DNA from: Bacillota bacterium
GTDB lineage: Bacteria; Bacillota; Clostridia; Tissierellales; Tissierellaceae
DNA: 64,000 nt
Reading direction: 5' to 3'
Assembly: GCA_051744365.1 (NCBI GenBank)
Contig: JBNJCX010000005.1
Location: 2,217 to 66,216, forward strand
Position 1 is the first letter of the stretch; every line of letters starts with the position of its first letter. Below the pieces are notes generated by a model, which had not been told where the DNA came from, did not search any database, and saw nothing but the letters and a program-made list of their open reading frames with translations. Made by a program: the position numbers and the translations under genes. This document shows positions 6,549 to 51,407 of this stretch, one piece after another.

Positions 6549-6689
6549 ATGAAATACATAAAGACATTGACAAAGAGCAGACTTAAGGATACTCTTTCCT
6601 ATGCCGGTTGTGGTGAGTGTCAGACATCTTGCCAATCAGCATGTAAGACATCCTGTACTGTTGGAAATCAGAAGTGCGAAAATAAGTAG
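6549..6689 (+). CDS. scfA: SCIFF six-cysteine ranthipeptide precursor (46 aa; too short for the ORF track)
   Basis: Translates to MKYIKTLTKSRLKDTLSYAGCGECQTSCQSACKTSCTVGNQKCENK. This has six Cys and the GCGECQTSCQSACKTSCTV core characteristic of SCIFF. An SD (aggaggaagg) lies upstream. Confidence 0.93.
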   Translation: MKYIKTLTKSRLKDTLSYAGCGECQTSCQSACKTSCTVGNQKCENK

Positions 6690-6754: not shown

Positions 6755-8113
6755 TTGAAACAGACCTTGATACATAAGTTTTACTTGAATGAAAAGTATA
6801 TGGCACTTGATGTCAACAGCGGGTCAGTACATGTTGTTGATGAGCTTGCATACGACATCCTGGACTATCATGGAGCCAAAAGCACAGAGGAAATTGTAGC
6901 AGCATTAAAGGACAAGTATGATGAAACCAATATAGTTGAAGCCTGCGGAGAGATAGATTATCTTGTGGAAAACGGAATGCTGTTCTCCGATGCTGAGGAT
7001 ATTGAACACCTTAAATACAATGAAGACAATGTTGTAAAGGCAATGTGTCTGCATGTGGCACATGATTGCAACCTTAAGTGTGATTACTGCTTTGCATCCC
7101 AGGGTAACTTCAAGGGCGAAAGGTCAATGATGAACCTTGAGACTGGAAAGAAAGCACTTTTATATCTTGCACAGAATTCCGGTAATAGGAAAAATCTGGA
7201 GGTTGACTTCTTTGGTGGTGAACCATTGATGAATTTTCAGATTGTAAAGGATCTTGTAGCCTACGGAAGAAGCATTGAAAAGGAATACAAAAAGAATTTC
7301 AGGTTTACTATCACTACCAACGGAGTACTCCTTGATGATGATAAAATTGATTATATAAACGAGAATATGGATAACGTTGTTTTAAGCCTCGATGGCCGAA
7401 AAGAAGTAAATGACGCTATGAGACTTACTGTCAGTGGTGATGGAAGCTATGATGTAATTCTTCCCAATATAAAGAAAATGGTGAAATCAAGAGGTGACAA
7501 GGATTATTACGTCAGGGGAACCTTTACCAGTAAAAATCTTGATTTTGGAAAGGATGCAATAAATTTCCATAATGAAGGCTTTAAAAAAATCTCCATTGAG
7601 CCAGTTGTGGCACCTGAAGAGATGGATTATGCCATTAGGGAAGAGCATATTGATGCAATATTAAAGGAGTATGAAAACTTCTCAAAAGAGTACATCAGGC
7701 TGACTGCTGAGGATAAGGAATTTATGTTCTTTCACTTTATGATTGATCTCGAGCAGGGACCATGCGTGGTAAAGAGAGCCGTGGGCTGTGGAGCAGGAAG
7801 CGAGTATCTGGCTGTAACCCCGGAAGGCGAGCTGTATCCCTGTCACCAGTTTGTGGGTGAGAAGGAATTCCTGTTGGGAACATTGGAGACGGGAGTAGAG
7901 AATACTGAGTTAAGGGACAAGTTTAAGGTTGCCAATGTATATAACAAGGAAGAGTGTAGGAATTGCTGGGCAAGATTCTATTGCAGTGGAGGTTGTCATG
8001 CAAATGCACACTATTCCCATGGTGATATAATGAAGCCCTACGAAATCGGATGTGAGATGGAAAAGAAGCGCATAGAATGCGCACTTTCAGTTCTTGCCAA
8101 TCAAGAGGGTTAG
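6755..8113 (+). CDS. scfB: SCIFF radical SAM/SPASM maturase
   Basis: Radical SAM CNLKCDYC, and SPASM Cys clusters CGAGSEYLAVTPEGELYPCHQF and CRNCWARFYCSGGCHANA. Lies directly downstream of scfA. TTG start 8 nt after AGGAGG. Confidence 0.92.
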   Translation: MKQTLIHKFYLNEKYMALDVNSGSVHVVDELAYDILDYHGAKSTEEIVAALKDKYDETNIVEACGEIDYLVENGMLFSDAEDIEHLKYNEDNVVKAMCLHVAHDCNLKCDYCFASQGNFKGERSMMNLETGKKALLYLAQNSGNRKNLEVDFFGGEPLMNFQIVKDLVAYGRSIEKEYKKNFRFTITTNGVLLDDDKIDYINENMDNVVLSLDGRKEVNDAMRLTVSGDGSYDVILPNIKKMVKSRGDKDYYVRGTFTSKNLDFGKDAINFHNEGFKKISIEPVVAPEEMDYAIREEHIDAILKEYENFSKEYIRLTAEDKEFMFFHFMIDLEQGPCVVKRAVGCGAGSEYLAVTPEGELYPCHQFVGEKEFLLGTLETGVENTELRDKFKVANVYNKEECRNCWARFYCSGGCHANAHYSHGDIMKPYEIGCEMEKKRIECALSVLANQEG

Positions 8114-15764: not shown

Positions 15765-17269
15765 TAAAAATGGTTAAAATTCTATGTGAGGACGTTAACA
15801 TAAAAACACATGACCCTTACGAACTGGTAAGGGCTTTTTATAGCGAGGAAGAAGTGCAGGTTGTGGATGACAGAACATTTATAACTGAAGAAAAAGATGA
15901 AGACGCTGTACGGATATCCATGGATAATAATATTTACAGAGTCTCACTTCTAAGGGGAAATGAAATCGTAGATACTGAAGAGATTCCATATTCGAAACTT
16001 GATTTTTACAGAAATGAGCGAGCATCAAGAAACAATACAGTAAAACATCTAATATATAAAGTTCTTGATAGGAATCTAAAAACAAATCTTCCTTGGGGTA
16101 TACTAACTGGAACTCGACCAGTGAAGATTGCAAAGATTCTAATGGATAAGGGACTTGATATTGATGAAACCCTAGATACTCTAACAGAAGCATATCTACT
16201 GAGACCTGACAAGGCAAGACTTATAATTCAGGTTTCTATTGGACAGAAGAAAATTCTGGAATCAATAGAAAAAAACAGCTACAGCATATACATTGGGATA
16301 CCCTTCTGCCCGACAAGATGTTTTTATTGTTCATTTCCAACATTGAATGCAGATAAATATGGAAGCTCTATGGAAAGGTATGTGGAAAACCTGATCCATG
16401 AGCTGGAAGACAATGCCAGTATGATGGAGAAGTGGGCAATAAATACTATATACATTGGTGGAGGAACTCCTACATCACTACCTGTTGAACTAATGGAAAG
16501 ACTGCTTAAATATATAGATAAAAAGTTTATAGGAGTAAATGAGCTTACAGTTGAGGCAGGTCGGCCGGACACCATAAACAGCGAGTATCTTGAGCTTTTC
16601 AAGCGGTATAATGTCGACAGAATAAGCATTAATCCCCAGACTATGAACGATGATACGTTAAAGATAATAGGTCGAAGGCATTCATCAGAAGATATTCTGA
16701 CCACTTATAAATTGAGCAAGGATATCGGAATTGAGACTGTCAATATGGATTTGATTGTAGGTCTTCCTAGTGAAGACAGGAAGGATATTGAAGATACGTT
16801 AAAGAAACTTGAACCCTTGCAGCCTGACAACTTGACTGTGCATACTCTTGCAGTTAAGAAGGGCTCTGATTTTATTGATGATCGAAAGAATTATTCCATG
16901 GCCTCTGCTGAAGAAATTCAGGAGATGCTAAGGCTTACAGCTAAATATGCAGAAAAGAACAATTTGATCCCCTATTACCTGTATAGACAAAAACAGATAA
17001 TGGGCAATTTCGAAAACATTGGGTACAGCAGACCTGATAATCCATGTCTATATAATATTTCCATAATGGAGGAGAAGGAAACAATCATAGGCATCGGGAT
17101 GGGTTCTACCACCAAGCTATACAACAAGTTGGAAGATAGTATAGAAACAATAGCAAATTTCAGGAATCTTAAGGAATACATGGACAGGTTGTCAGAACTT
17201 GAATTGAGAAAAAGGCAGAAAATCAAGGGAATTGAGGATTCATGGAGCCAGATTCAGCTTGACACTTAG
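15761..17269 (+). CDS. HemN/HemZ-like radical SAM protein (coproporphyrinogen dehydrogenase family)
   Basis: GIPFCPTRCFYCSF radical SAM motif. GTG start overlaps the upstream stop. Confidence 0.82.
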   Translation: MIKMVKILCEDVNIKTHDPYELVRAFYSEEEVQVVDDRTFITEEKDEDAVRISMDNNIYRVSLLRGNEIVDTEEIPYSKLDFYRNERASRNNTVKHLIYKVLDRNLKTNLPWGILTGTRPVKIAKILMDKGLDIDETLDTLTEAYLLRPDKARLIIQVSIGQKKILESIEKNSYSIYIGIPFCPTRCFYCSFPTLNADKYGSSMERYVENLIHELEDNASMMEKWAINTIYIGGGTPTSLPVELMERLLKYIDKKFIGVNELTVEAGRPDTINSEYLELFKRYNVDRISINPQTMNDDTLKIIGRRHSSEDILTTYKLSKDIGIETVNMDLIVGLPSEDRKDIEDTLKKLEPLQPDNLTVHTLAVKKGSDFIDDRKNYSMASAEEIQEMLRLTAKYAEKNNLIPYYLYRQKQIMGNFENIGYSRPDNPCLYNISIMEEKETIIGIGMGSTTKLYNKLEDSIETIANFRNLKEYMDRLSELELRKRQKIKGIEDSWSQIQLDT

Positions 17270-17287
17270 GCAGTATTATTTTATAAT
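17259..17287 (+). promoter_or_regulatory. Consensus sigma-A promoter for the aspS leader
   Basis: TTGACA (17259-17264, inside the end of the upstream CDS), a 17-nt spacer, then TATAAT (17282-17287). Confidence 0.7.
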
Positions 17288-17293
17288 TATGTA

Positions 17294-17522
17294 AATTAAA
17301 TAAACAGACTTTGATAAGGAAGAGTATCAGAAATTATTGGGGCAAGAGAGCTGAAGATGGTGGGAATTCAGCACCAATATTCTGTGAAGACACCTTTGAG
17401 TCAGCAGTATATCTGCTCGTGAAATACGTTATAAATTGAGTGAGGAAAACCTAATTAGGGTGGCACCGCGAGATAAGCCTCTCGTCCCTGAAAATCAGAG
17501 ATGAGAGGTTTTATATTTTTTT
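17294..17522 (+). promoter_or_regulatory. T-box leader (Asp specifier) with terminator
   Basis: T-box sequence aattagGGTGGcACCGCG (17453-17470) and an AGAGA stem-I element. The candidate specifier is GAC-A at 17389-17392. Terminator: cctctcgtc (17478-17486) pairs with gatgagagg (17500-17508), followed by a T-run. Confidence 0.9.
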
Positions 17523-17536
17523 AAGGAGGTATAATT

Positions 17537-19321
17537 ATGGGAGAAAAAATGGGAAATCTTAGACGTACTGCCATGTGTGGAAATCTTAGGATGGATGATG
17601 TGGGAAGTGATGTGGTACTGATGGGCTGGGTCCAGAGAGAGAGGAACCTGGGGGGGTTGTTATTTATAGACCTGAGGGATACAACTGGCTTGGTACAGAT
17701 AGTATTTGACGATAAAGCACCTAGAGATATGGTGGAAAAAGCCGAATCTGTAAGAACTGAGTACGTATTGGCAATCAGAGGTAAGGTAAGGGAAAGACAA
17801 TCCAAGAATCCTAATATGCCAACAGGGGATATTGAGATTCTGGCAGAGGAAATCAAGATACTGGACGAAGCACAGACGCCTCCTATATATATCAAGGACG
17901 AAGACAATGTAAGCGAAACAATGAGGCTGAAATACAGATATCTTGACTTGAGAAAGCCTTCAATGCAGAAAAATTTGAAGTTAAGGGCAAAAATTTCAAA
18001 GGTGGTCAGGGACTTTTTTTACGAAAATGATTTTGTAGAGATAGAGACTCCTATGCTTACAAAACCTACTCCTGAGGGAGCAAGGGATTATCTGGTGCCC
18101 AGCAGAGTAAACCCTGGTCAGTTCTATGCACTTCCACAGTCTCCTCAATTGATGAAGCAGCTTTTGATGGTATCTGGCATGGACAGGTACTATCAGATAG
18201 TGAAATGCTTCAGGGACGAGGATTTAAGAGCCAACAGGCAGCCTGAATTCACTCAGGTGGATGTAGAGATGAGCTTTGTGGATGTTGAGGATGTTCTAGA
18301 TATTAATGAAAAGCTTATGCAGAGACTTTTCAAGGAAATCAAGGGAATAAATTTGGAGCTTCCTTTGATGAGAATGTCATATAATGATGCTATGGACAGG
18401 TATGGAGTGGATAAACCAGACCTGAGATTCGAACTTGAGCTTAAGAATGCATCAGAATTATTGAAAGCTTGTGGCTTCAAGGTGTTCAGTGACGCCATCC
18501 AGTCAGGTGGAGTTGTAAAGGGAATCAACGTAAAAAATGGAGCAGACAAATTTACACGTAAGGACATATCAAAGCTTGAGGATTATGCAAAAACCTATGG
18601 TGCAAAAGGGCTTGCCTGGATGAAGCTGACTGATGAAGGAATCAGTTCACCTATTGGAAAGTTCTTCGACGATAAAGAAATAAATAATTTAACAGAGTTT
18701 TTTGAAGCGGAAAAAGGTGATATGCTACTTTTTGTAGCTGATACCATACAAGTTGCAAACGATAGTTTAGGAAATCTTAGAAATGATATTGCAAGAAGGA
18801 TGGATTTGATTTCTGATGAAGATTTCAAAATACTTTGGATTACAGATTTTCCGTTGTTTGAATACGACGAGGAAGAAGAAAGATATGTGGCAAAGCATCA
18901 TCCATTTACTCATCCAGTAGAAGAAGATATCCCATTGCTTGAAACTGAGCCTCATAGAGTAAGAGCAAAAGCTTATGACCTGGTGATAAATGGAGATGAA
19001 ATGGGAGGAGGAAGTATCAGGATAAACAATTCCCAACTTCAATCCAGAATGTTCAGTGCACTGGGATTCAGTAAAGAAGAGGCTCAAGCAAAGTTCGGAT
19101 TTCTGCTTGAAGCGTTTAAGTACGGAACACCTCCGCACGGCGGAATAGCCTTTGGTTTGGACAGACTTGTCATGTTGTTTTCAGGACGTTCGAACATAAG
19201 GGATGTAATTGCTTTTCCAAAAACCCAATCAGCTACCTGTCTTATGACAGATGCACCTACAGAGGCTTCGCCTAAACAGCTGCAAGAGGTTCATATAAGG
19301 GTTGATCTGAAGAATGAATGA
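17537..19321 (+). CDS. aspS: Aspartate--tRNA ligase
   Basis: Class II aaRS motifs (FRDEDLRANRQPEFTQVD, GGGSIRI, GIAFGLDR). AAGGAGG lies 7 nt upstream. Confidence 0.97.
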   Translation: MGEKMGNLRRTAMCGNLRMDDVGSDVVLMGWVQRERNLGGLLFIDLRDTTGLVQIVFDDKAPRDMVEKAESVRTEYVLAIRGKVRERQSKNPNMPTGDIEILAEEIKILDEAQTPPIYIKDEDNVSETMRLKYRYLDLRKPSMQKNLKLRAKISKVVRDFFYENDFVEIETPMLTKPTPEGARDYLVPSRVNPGQFYALPQSPQLMKQLLMVSGMDRYYQIVKCFRDEDLRANRQPEFTQVDVEMSFVDVEDVLDINEKLMQRLFKEIKGINLELPLMRMSYNDAMDRYGVDKPDLRFELELKNASELLKACGFKVFSDAIQSGGVVKGINVKNGADKFTRKDISKLEDYAKTYGAKGLAWMKLTDEGISSPIGKFFDDKEINNLTEFFEAEKGDMLLFVADTIQVANDSLGNLRNDIARRMDLISDEDFKILWITDFPLFEYDEEEERYVAKHHPFTHPVEEDIPLLETEPHRVRAKAYDLVINGDEMGGGSIRINNSQLQSRMFSALGFSKEEAQAKFGFLLEAFKYGTPPHGGIAFGLDRLVMLFSGRSNIRDVIAFPKTQSATCLMTDAPTEASPKQLQEVHIRVDLKNE

Positions 19322-20027
19322 TAGATTTGCAAGAACAAGCATTCTCCTTGGAGAGAATGCAATGAAAATATTGAAGGAGTCTACCGTGGCGGTCTTCGGA
19401 ATTGGAGGTGTGGGCTCCTATGCCGTGGAGGCTCTTGCCAGAACAGGAATAGGCAAGCTTGTCATAGTGGACTATGATATAATAGATATATCAAATATAA
19501 ATCGACAGGTACATGCTTTGACAAGTACAATCGGACAATTCAAGGTCGATGCAATGAAAGAAAGACTTTTGGACATTAATCCTGAGCTGAAGGTTGTTGC
19601 AGTCAACGATAAGTATAACAGTGAAACAAGGGAAAAACTGTTATCAAATGAGTATGACTATATTGTAGATGCCATTGATATGGTTTCTTCAAAGTTGGAT
19701 TTGGTTACATCAGCATCCTCAATGGGTATACCAATAATAAGCTCAATGGGAGCAGGAAACAAATTAAATCCTACCGGTTTTATGGTTAAGGACATTAACA
19801 GCACAAAAGTCTGTCCTTTGGCTAGAGTTATGCGCCAGGAGTTGAGAAAACGCGGAATAGAAAACCTGAAGGTAGTATACTCAGAGGAAGAGCCATTGAA
19901 GATAAATCTTGGGGAAGGCGAACGGCGGAAAGCCATACCGGGAAGCATTGGATTCGTACCACCGGTAGTTGGCTTGATTATTGCGTCGGAAGTAATAAAG
20001 GATTTAACATCACAGGAGGAGAGATAG
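19314..20027 (+). CDS. tcdA: ThiF/MoeB-family tRNA threonylcarbamoyladenosine dehydratase
   Basis: VFGIGGVGSY nucleotide-binding loop and NRQ motif. The size fits TcdA/CsdL-type E1-like enzymes. Confidence 0.75.
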   Translation: MNDRFARTSILLGENAMKILKESTVAVFGIGGVGSYAVEALARTGIGKLVIVDYDIIDISNINRQVHALTSTIGQFKVDAMKERLLDINPELKVVAVNDKYNSETREKLLSNEYDYIVDAIDMVSSKLDLVTSASSMGIPIISSMGAGNKLNPTGFMVKDINSTKVCPLARVMRQELRKRGIENLKVVYSEEEPLKINLGEGERRKAIPGSIGFVPPVVGLIIASEVIKDLTSQEER

Positions 20028-20028
20028 C

Positions 20029-20451
20029 GTGGATCAAATAGGATTTGTGATAAAGAAAGTTGGTGACCAGAAGGTACAACTGGAAGTTAAAAGACCATCA
20101 GGATGAGGCAGCTGTAGTTCCTGCGCAAGTTCTTGCGAAGTTAAGCCTCACTATGTTACAGTTAACAACAATATCGATGCGAAGCCTGGTGATTTTGTGG
20201 AGCTTCAGGCTATTCAAAAAAATATTATGAAGTATGTGACAATAATATATATGATTCCTTTTGCTTTCTTAATATTGGGAATCTTTGTCGGAAACAGTAT
20301 GTTCAAAGGAATGGAGACCGCCAGCCACGAGCTTCTGATTTTTGGTATGGGAATTGTATTCCTGGCAATATCATTTGTGATTGTGAGAATTATTGACAAA
20401 GTATTTGCAAAGAAAGATGAGAATATAATCGTTATGACAAGAAAGCTTTAA
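20029..20451 (+). CDS. RseC/MucC-family small membrane protein with a single in-frame TGA (candidate selenocysteine at codon 26)
   Basis: GTG 20029 lies 9 nt after AGGAGG (20014-20019). The frame reads MDQIGFVIKKVGDQKVQLEVKRPSG-TGA(20104-20106)-GSCSSCASSCEVKPHYVTV...PGDFVELQAIQ and runs straight into the tracked 84-aa ORF (20197..20451), which carries 2 TM helices. The track's GTG 20197 has no SD. Confidence 0.6.
20105..20149 (+). promoter_or_regulatory. SECIS-like hairpin immediately 3' of the in-frame TGA
   Basis: GAGGC (20105-20109) pairs with GCCTC (20145-20149), and AGCT (20110-13) pairs with AGTT (20139-42). The upper stem is CGCAA (20124-28) with TTGCG (20133-37), capped by the loop GTTC (20129-32). 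Confidence 0.45.
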
Positions 20452-20463
20452 GGAGGGGTGGTT

Positions 20464-20718
20464 TTGGCAGAGAAGGATGCAATAATCGTACGATTAAGAA
20501 GAGTAGAAGGTCAGATAAAGGGTATACAAAAAATGGTGGATGAGGACAAGTTCTGTGGAGATATATTGATTCAGATATCAGCTGCAAGAAGTGCCCTGAA
20601 TAATGTTGGAGGGCTCATTCTTGAGAATTATATGAAGAATTGTCTATTGGAGGCACCGGATGGTTCTGAAGAGGAACTTGACAAGCTGATTGAGATTATG
20701 CTTAAATACACCAAATAA
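20464..20718 (+). CDS. CsoR/RcnR/CstR-family metal- or thiol-sensing transcriptional repressor (DUF156)
   Basis: RLRRVEGQIKGIQKMVDEDKFCGDILIQISAARSAL is the family signature. TTG 20464 is correctly spaced from AGGAGG (20451-56), whereas the track's GTG 20458 is only 1 nt from it. Confidence 0.85.
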   Translation: MAEKDAIIVRLRRVEGQIKGIQKMVDEDKFCGDILIQISAARSALNNVGGLILENYMKNCLLEAPDGSEEELDKLIEIMLKYTK

Positions 20719-28015: not shown

Positions 28016-28092
28016 TGGTCGGAGTGATAGGATTTGAACCTACGGCCCCTAGTCCCCCAGACTAGTGCGCTACCAAGCTGCGCCACACCCCG
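28016..28092 (-). tRNA. tRNA-Pro (anticodon GGG), CCA encoded
   Basis: The reverse complement is CGGGGTG-TG-GCGC-AGCTTGGTA-GCGC-A-CTAGT-CTGGGGG-ACTAG-GGGCC-GTAGG-TTCAAAT-CCTAT-CACTCCG-A-CCA. It folds as a full cloverleaf with T33, anticodon GGG at positions 34-36 and G37. Confidence 0.9.
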
Positions 28093-51235: not shown

Positions 51236-51280
51236 TTTATTCATTTATGGTATTGTTTAACTGTAGAAAAGAATATTTAC

Positions 51281-51407
51281 AGCACTGGGGGAGCGAAAGC
51301 TGAGAGAGATGAATTCTCGACCCTTAAGACCTGAACTAGGTAATACTAGCGGAGGGAAGTGTGTATAGAATTTATACTCATTGCCTTCTGGACAATGAGT
51401 TTTTTTT
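51281..51407 (+). promoter_or_regulatory. TPP (THI-box) riboswitch with intrinsic terminator
   Basis: GGGGAGC...CTGAGA (51300-05)...ACCC...CCTGAACTAGGTAATACTAGCGGAGGGAA matches the TPP aptamer core. Terminator: actcattg (51376-83) pairs with caatgagt (51393-400), followed by T7. Confidence 0.9.

Follow-up and report, generated by a model that had tools for sequence, protein, structure and literature searches.

A candidate SECIS element at an in-frame UGA codon of an RseC/MucC-family gene in Tissierellaceae

The rseC locus and its in-frame TGA codon

The window analysed here is a stretch of 64,000 nucleotides from contig JBNJCX010000005.1 (positions 2,217 to 66,216 of the forward strand) of assembly GCA_051744365.1, which belongs to a Bacillota bacterium of the family Tissierellaceae. 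It contains a gene of the RseC/MucC family, referred to as rseC below, that is crossed by an in-frame TGA at codon 26, and directly at this codon begins a stem-loop resembling the selenocysteine insertion sequence (SECIS) of bacteria. The features of the locus and of the rest of the window are collected in Table 1.

The GTG start of rseC lies 2 nt past the stop codon (TAG 20025-20027) of the upstream ThiF-family gene. A Pfam scan of the product, run with cysteine (Cys) put in for the residue encoded by the TGA (U26), matched PF04246 (RseC_MucC) over residues 9-137 of the 140, and thus across the TGA, with 99.2 bits and E = 2e-28 (cut-off 24.4). With NF008115, the NCBIfam equivalog model for RseC of the SoxR-reducing system, the product scored 25.4 bits, below the cut-off of 184. 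Judged by its sequence, the window protein is a member of the RseC/MucC family and not an orthologue or equivalog of Escherichia coli RseC. The motif around codon 26 of the predicted selenoprotein reads SG-U26-GS-C29-SS-C32-ASS-C36. The UGSC selenoprotein family (NF041046) was considered for the U-G-S-C motif and rejected, since its model does not match the protein.

A sequence search of the Protein Data Bank found no solved relative. The AlphaFold2 model of P0001, a Cys-containing orthologue that is 91% identical to the window protein, has a mean predicted local distance difference test score of 79.5 and comprises a small beta domain at the N-terminus and, at 66-92 and 100-128, two transmembrane helices. 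Confidence is low for the cysteine loop (approximately residues 21-40), as expected where a cofactor-binding loop is modelled without its cofactor.

Table 1. Features of the rseC locus, of its orthologues and of the remainder of the window. Positions are those of the window, except for the loci marked L, where they are those of the respective contig.
Feature	Position	Strand	Remarks
RseC/MucC-family gene (rseC)	20029..20451	+	140 codons, GTG start, TAA stop 20449-20451, in-frame TGA at codon 26
UGA codon 26, predicted selenocysteine	20104..20106	+	TGA in 27 loci; Cys codons (TGT/TGC) in 7 close and in all distant relatives
Shine-Dalgarno sequence AGGAGG	20014..20019	+	9 nt 5' of the GTG start; sequence reading
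Apical hairpin CGCAA[GUUC]UUGCG, proposed minimal SECIS and putative SelB-binding element	20124..20137	+	Minimum free energy folding, orthologue conservation
Invariant core AGUUCUUG	20128..20135	+	Loop GUUC 20129-20132 and closing A-U; Ser34 AGT, Ser35 TCT, TG of Cys36
5' arm of lower and middle stem (GAGGC, AGCU)	20105..20113	+	Overlaps GA of UGA; poorly conserved
3' arm of lower and middle stem (AGUU, unpaired AA, GCCUC)	20139..20149	+	Sequence reading, folding
Destabilised-helix regions	L020 352-414, L024 1573-1635, L025 644-706, L026 1073-1135		Sec-type orthologues
ThiF-family (TcdA-like) adenylyltransferase	19314..20027	+	Upstream neighbour, conserved synteny
CsoR/RcnR-family metal-sensitive repressor	20458..20718	+	6 nt past the rseC stop; follows rseC in every syntenic locus examined
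Sigma-70-like promoter, perfect (12/12)	17259-17287	+	Ahead of aspS
T-box leader	17302-17492	+	109 bits, ahead of aspS
SCIFF-type six-Cys peptide MKYIKTLTKSRLKDTLSYAGCGECQTSCQSACKTSCTVGNQKCENK	6549-6689	+	Directly upstream of its radical SAM maturase
Radical SAM SCIFF maturase	6755-8113	+	TIGR03974, E = 5e-204
Thiamine pyrophosphate (TPP) riboswitch	51277-51374	+	67.5 bits
Lone tRNA-Pro(GGG)	28016-28092	-	tRNA scan

Retention of the UGA codon among orthologues

Orthologous loci were aligned in register from genome, metagenome and Logan contigs, 34 in all. Codon 26 is TGA in 27 of these, which represent 21 distinct genes (referred to as Sec-type, for selenocysteine), and TGT or TGC in the remaining seven (Cys-type). 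The TGA-type loci belong to Gudongella/Soehngenia-like Tissierellia, the group to which a genome scan also assigned the window. The Sec-type genes have diverged to DNA identities as low as 65%, with a median third-position identity of 46%, and yet the TGA and both of its flanks are conserved at this near-saturated synonymous divergence. Nonsynonymous divergence (dN) is 0.03-0.40, whereas synonymous divergence (dS) is at least 0.6 and mostly above 1 or saturated; the same holds downstream of the TGA and in the 24 codons that precede it. The large excess of dS over dN on either side of the TGA argues that both parts are translated as one protein.

These data bear on the possibility that the TGA is a true stop, the gene being either a pseudogene or split into a 25-residue peptide and a shorter protein downstream, of the kind seen in the database calls of 84-98 aa, and the hairpin being incidental. 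Public annotations do give products of 79-99 aa that start past the TGA, and the energy of the hairpin is unremarkable. The strictly conserved cysteine motif, however, sits between the TGA and the called starts, and these starts vary among the orthologues (VTVKNN, MVLKNN, MELQ, MQKN). Given this, and given the conservation and the low dN relative to dS on both sides, for which a pseudogene or split gene was rejected, we consider it extremely unlikely that translation simply ends at this codon.

The residue at position 26 falls in an invariant Cys column in the alignments of Cys-type homologues (21 and 44 sequences). Elsewhere in the window, TGA is the terminator of 11 of the 58 long open reading frames at normal protein lengths, including that of aspS just upstream, which indicates that the organism uses the standard bacterial code; genetic codes 4 and 25 were rejected on this ground.

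In the databases, the calls P0003, P0004 and P0008-P0013 print W at the Sec codon, and P0018-P0039 are the shortened products that start past the TGA. The Logan proteins with W at residue 26 have TGA in their DNA, and their look-ups returned 'translates_to_query: no' under code 11. Such W or shortened calls are as expected of an unrecognised Sec codon. One of the shortened calls, P0032 (84 aa, NCBI source), is probably the RefSeq gene of Gudongella sp. SC589 (L004), which would be misannotated there.

The W given by some gene callers would also agree with read-through of the UGA without any Sec machinery, by near-cognate insertion of Trp, Cys or Gly or under a reassigned code, with the hairpin at most slowing termination. 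The same can be said of the failure to find Sec machinery within the window. Such read-through is nevertheless highly improbable: TGA functions as an ordinary terminator at normal lengths in the window, with no sign of code 4 or 25, the W calls do not translate back, and the codon falls at an invariant Cys that is probably a cluster ligand and has TGT and TGC as its only alternatives, which is the classic signature of Sec/Cys exchange. We conclude that UGA 20104-20106 very probably encodes Sec.

Among Tissierellia, species such as Tissierella creatinophila employ reductases for glycine, sarcosine and creatine that contain Sec, and the presence of the Sec trait in the class of the host is plausible. 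A search for GrdA gave 7923 matches without organism names and was uninformative on the use of Sec in Gudongella. A scan of the window for other in-frame TGA codons that might be read through gave none that was convincing.

Folding of the stem-loop and fit to the bacterial SECIS model

A first-pass annotation of the window had described a SECIS-like stem-loop at 20105-20149, and all of its pairings can be read directly from the sequence. GAGGC (20105-20109), which overlaps the GA of the TGA, is complementary to GCCTC (20145-20149); AGCT (20110-20113) pairs with AGTT (20139-20142), including one G-U pair and leaving AA 20143-20144 unpaired; and CGCAA (20124-20128) pairs with TTGCG (20133-20137), closing the loop GTTC (20129-20132). 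The G of the apical loop lies 25 nt past the U of the UGA, as had been stated, with 22 nt (20107-20128) between the codon and the loop. When the region was refolded with RNAfold, the minimum free energy (MFE) structure reproduced the apical hairpin together with the outer and middle stems, and added a small extra hairpin inside the internal loop of the proposed structure. The MFE was -14.7 kcal/mol for 61 nt and -13.2 kcal/mol for 47 nt.

According to PMC13188914 (Fig. 2A), the bSECISearch model of Zhang and Gladyshev describes a bacterial SECIS (bSECIS) by an upper stem of 4-16 bp that carries a loop of 3-9 nt, a G in the first two loop positions, usually as G[G/U], a spacing of 16-37 nt between UGA and loop, and an MFE of -7.5 kcal/mol or lower. 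The agreement with this published description, which the first-pass annotation had asserted, extends to all four of these properties. The loop GUUC has 4 nt and the stem CGCAA/UUGCG 5 bp, in both the MFE and the centroid structures; the loop starts with G-U, and does so in 21/21 distinct Sec-type genes; and both the spacing of 22 nt and the MFE values of -13.2 to -14.7 kcal/mol lie within the range of the model. Furthermore, the structure (20105-20149) is located within a coding region, directly 3' of an in-frame UGA, and this UGA aligns with the invariant C26 of the Cys-type homologues.

The specificity of such a match can be judged from the 2890 TGA triplets on both strands of the window (38.6% G+C). 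An MFE-based implementation of the bSECIS model is satisfied by 8.2% of them, and in 2.1% a G[G/U]NN tetraloop sits at an allowed spacing on a stem of 5 bp or more. The MFE of the hairpin stands at the 7th percentile. The hairpin is thus moderately unusual against the local genome.

Conservation of the apical hairpin

Of the 21 distinct Sec-type genes, 17 share the same 14-nt apical hairpin, CGCAAGUUCUUGCG. The apical helix is paired in 95% of the cells of the Sec-type alignment, and its pair probability in the clade of the window is 0.5-0.96. Alignment columns 28-35, which correspond to the core AGUUCUUG, are invariant.

This invariance extends to sites where the encoded protein would allow change. 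There are 27 amino-acid-invariant columns with at least four-fold degeneracy, and only two of these, Ser34 (AGT) and Ser35 (TCT), are also invariant in codon. The two residues are adjacent and six-fold degenerate, and together their codons make the loop GUUC and the A-U pair that closes it. The remaining 25 columns use between two and six codons each, and serines 24, 28 and 31 show codon entropies of 1.0-1.8 bits. The codon invariance of Ser34 and Ser35 amid near-saturated third positions is the main evidence of selection on the RNA. We take the hairpin to be more than a product of chance because, across 21 distinct orthologues, neither the loop nor the pair that closes it varies at synonymous sites.

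On this evidence, the stem-loop is probably a bacterial SECIS located inside the coding region of an RseC/MucC-family gene, with the apical hairpin as its functional core. The interpretation is supported by comparative and contextual evidence, and not by the stability of the hairpin. The 45-nt stem-loop of the first-pass annotation has to be narrowed down: the apical 14 nt are conserved, whereas the 45 nt as a whole are not, the lower stem being weakly conserved.

Observations that weigh against a SECIS, and the possibility of another fold

Several observations speak against the interpretation as a SECIS. The fold is no more stable than those of dinucleotide shuffles (z = -0.08 and -0.83), of which 86/200 and 44/200 folded equally well or better. 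The earlier statement that a 45-nt structure at this position would not be expected by chance therefore fails as far as stability is concerned, and since the z-scores are not significant, stability is unusable as evidence for a SECIS. In the lower and middle stem (helix 1), 78% of the alignment cells are paired, and pairs 6-48, 9-45 and 10-42 are often broken. Likewise the A-U pair that uses the A of the UGA is broken in 10/17 sequences, its partner being the free third position of a Pro codon.

Compensatory changes across the TGA-containing orthologues had been proposed as a check of the structure, and none were seen: the Sec-type alignment has no compensatory double changes in the apical helix, and the shuffle control was not significant. 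RNAalifold retains only 3 bp. The variation that does occur in the apical helix is one-sided (C to U, resulting in G-U), and most of its positions are fixed by the codons for Cys and Ala.

Neither tRNA-Sec nor sel genes were found within the 64-kb window. Rfam holds the SECIS models SECIS_1 to SECIS_5. A scan of the window at the gathering thresholds returned T-box, TPP and tRNA only and no SECIS family, and a scan of 20060-20220 with E up to 10 gave two chance matches, again with no SECIS family.

A further difficulty is posed by a sister clade. The genes L020/21, L024, L025 and L026 keep the TGA and the core AGUUCUUG, but the free energy (dG) of their canonical helix is +0.3 to +0.6 kcal/mol and its pair probability is approximately 0. 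The helix of this clade contains two G-U pairs and one mismatch (U-U in L020, L025 and L026); the genes have TGT for the TGC codons and GCT or TCA for GCA. The sequence of this destabilised-helix clade (clade B) is UGUGCUAGUUCUUGUGA. In addition, a competing mini-hairpin, UUC[UUGY]GAR (window 20130-20139), shares the invariant bases, and L020 and L026 are predicted to prefer a different hairpin, one with a UUGU loop, with a probability of 0.88. In the sister clade either SelB stabilises the weak helix, or the structure that is recognised differs from the one described in the first-pass annotation.

The second of these options amounts to a rival explanation, in which Sec is inserted at the UGA but SelB recognises another fold on the core AGUUCUUG, be it the mini-hairpin or a longer imperfect hairpin such as is predicted in L020 and L026, where the alternative pairs reach the probability given above. 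In that case the CGCAA/UUGCG helix would mostly follow from the codons TGC-GCA...TGC-G. In support of this explanation, the pairs of the canonical stem are mostly codon-forced, and four Sec-type genes retain the core without a stable canonical helix. The alternative helix is furthermore paired in 85% of cells, with three changes on both sides at pair 27-42. The mini-hairpin, on the other hand, has only 3 contiguous pairs and lacks a G at either of the first two loop positions. Its covariation does not reach significance, and its pair probability is at most 0.07 in the window and in 16 other Sec genes, compared with 0.5-0.96 for the canonical helix. We regard recognition of another fold as unlikely.

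Proposed mechanism of UGA recoding

For the preferred interpretation, in which the apical hairpin is the functional core of a SECIS, a mechanism can be proposed from the established SelB pathway of E. coli and Moorella. The apical hairpin (20124-20137) would be bound by the C-terminal domain of SelB through its exposed loop G-U, and would recruit SelB-GTP-Sec-tRNA(Sec), the loop being located 22 nt past UGA 20104-20106. SelB tethered in this manner would compete with release factor 2 and deliver Sec to the A site at the UGA. The part of the structure that overlaps the UGA, the lower stem, would be melted by the ribosome and would be dispensable. Translation would then proceed through the SECIS itself, which also encodes C-A-S-S-C-E. 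The predicted product is a membrane protein of 140 residues that has two transmembrane helices and, on the cytoplasmic side, a beta domain. Sec26 would occupy the position of the first conserved cysteine of the trio that assembles the [4Fe-4S] cluster in E. coli RseC, presumably as a ligand.

Switching between Sec-type and Cys-type genes

A profile search yielded 135 cluster representatives, 111 of which have the Cys motif. The Sec-type entries among them (8 printed with W and 13 truncated) are all at least 66% identical to the window protein, and the more distant Tissierellia homologues found in the search are all Cys. This distribution suggests that the Sec form arose within this lineage. 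In a neighbour-joining tree the Cys-type genes are tips dispersed within Sec clades, a pattern that requires at least five independent switches.

The closest pair is found on two metagenome contigs. The genes L012 (1501-1923) and L013 (469-891) differ in a single nucleotide, TGT versus TGA, and otherwise encode the same RseC protein. Sec and Cys alleles that are one nucleotide apart in near-identical strains make this lineage a good natural experiment on what selenocysteine costs and what is gained from it.

Among the Cys-type relatives, the hairpin is kept in L002/L012, and the AGT TCT loop codons are kept at least in L001 and L027-L029. That the hairpin or the loop codons are kept in most Cys-type relatives fits a recent conversion. 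In the most divergent Cys-type gene, L030 (1001-1423), GCA AGT TCT TGC is replaced by GCA GGA TCC TGT. The geometry of the helix is the same, with a double change from A-U to G-C and the loop GAUC; this is a single, anecdotal compensatory change.

Genomic neighbourhood and other features of the window

The conserved block around rseC has the order aspS, ThiF-family gene, rseC, CsoR-family repressor and glyA. No terminator-like sites were detected on the plus strand between aspS, thiF, rseC and csoR. This tight packing without a terminator-like site suggests that rseC may be co-transcribed with aspS, ahead of which lie a promoter and a T-box leader (Table 1).

The CsoR/RcnR-family repressor has Cys33, Cys62 and Tyr58. 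Tyr58 stands where copper-sensing CsoR has His, and the x-C-x-C signature resembles that of the persulfide-sensing CstR and not that of copper sensors. A different neighbourhood was observed for the Cys-type gene L027 (1001-1423), the product of which is 74% identical to the window protein: it is surrounded by zinc-ribbon, SHOCT and DUF302 genes, while the remaining copies occupy the block from aspS to glyA.

The first ten large open reading frames of the window are housekeeping genes, comprising ruvCAB, queA, tgt, the SCIFF maturase, secDF and recJ. The SCIFF-type peptide, the riboswitch and the tRNA are listed in Table 1.

Novelty and implications

To see whether the family is known to contain Sec, the literature and the available catalogues were searched. 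RseC, MucC and PF04246 have no entry among the 119 families and subfamilies of the 2026 inventory of prokaryotic selenoproteins (PMC13188914, Table 1), and none of the selenoprotein models of NCBIfam matches the rseC product. Likewise, full-text literature searches, the deep-Sep supplements, BSepDB, the Haft preprint and Zhang 2006 gave no report of a Sec-containing RseC. The SECIS would thus represent an ordinary mechanism in an apparently uncatalogued selenoprotein family. SECIS-directed recoding of UGA is textbook knowledge; what is new here is the host family, the annotation errors and the population genetics of Sec and Cys.

Taken together, these results allow a more far-reaching proposal, which we put forward tentatively. 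The gene may be the founding member of a Sec-containing RseC/MucC family, membrane-anchored and with Sec in place of the Cys that is the first ligand at an [4Fe-4S] site sensitive to oxygen, or at another metal site, that was derived from a Cys form in one Tissierellia lineage and is still flipping between the two. As part of the same proposal, the determinant of the SECIS may be the core AGUUCUUG and not a stable helix, a speculation prompted by the four Sec-type genes that keep the core with a helix dG of zero or above. If true, a determinant consisting of the core only would point to recognition by SelB outside the standard bSECIS model.

The RseC/MucC proteins act as partners to the Rnf/Rsx electron-transfer complexes and bind an oxygen-sensitive [4Fe-4S] cluster through conserved cysteines. 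A natural exchange of Sec for Cys at a residue that aligns with a cluster cysteine would provide a ready system to probe the role of selenium at an iron-sulfur or metal site.

Comparison with known SECIS elements and RseC proteins

With respect to the bSECIS model, which is permissive (8% of the TGA triplets of the window pass), the element described here is peculiar in that its lower stem is unconserved and that the sister clade retains the UGA despite a destabilised helix.

The minimal SECIS of E. coli fdhF, known from the work of Bock, Huttenhofer and Fourmy, is GGUUGCA-GGUC-UGCACC, with the loop G-U at positions 23-24, and in E. coli the lower SECIS stem that overlaps the UGA is dispensable. 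The two elements are alike in having a short helix and an A-U-closed G-N-U-C tetraloop (GGUC in fdhF, GUUC here), in the availability of the loop G-U for SelB, and in a lower stem overlapping the UGA that is dispensable in fdhF and predicted to be so here. They differ in the position of the loop G-U, which is here at 26-27 counted from the U of the UGA, and in the upper helix, which is here without a bulged U. Moreover, the host is Gram-positive, and no similarity between the two is detectable by Rfam models.

In E. coli RseC, three conserved cysteines (CX2CX5C) assemble an oxygen-sensitive [4Fe-4S] cluster (PMC11729352). In an HHalign comparison U26, C29 and C32 of the window protein were aligned to Cys26, Cys29 and Cys35 of E. 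coli RseC; the CX5CX2CX5C spacing and the non-conserved C20 of the E. coli sequence used agree with PMC11729352. Like E. coli RseC, the window protein has an N-terminal cysteine motif and two transmembrane helices (topology according to PMC11729352). Unlike in E. coli RseC, the first conserved Cys is replaced by the predicted Sec, and a fourth cysteine, C36, is present in addition. The genomic context is different again from that in Clostridium ljungdahlii, where rseC is located upstream of rnf and is essential for autotrophy (PMC9124969), whereas the gene in the window adjoins neither rnf nor rpoE and lies between the ThiF-family gene and the CsoR-family repressor. A parallel to the predicted protein is found in the catalogued selenoproteins with which it was compared, which also have Sec in a UxxC-type motif, in place of a Cys ligand of a metal or iron-sulfur site; those UxxC-type selenoproteins, however, are of a different fold and belong to a different family.

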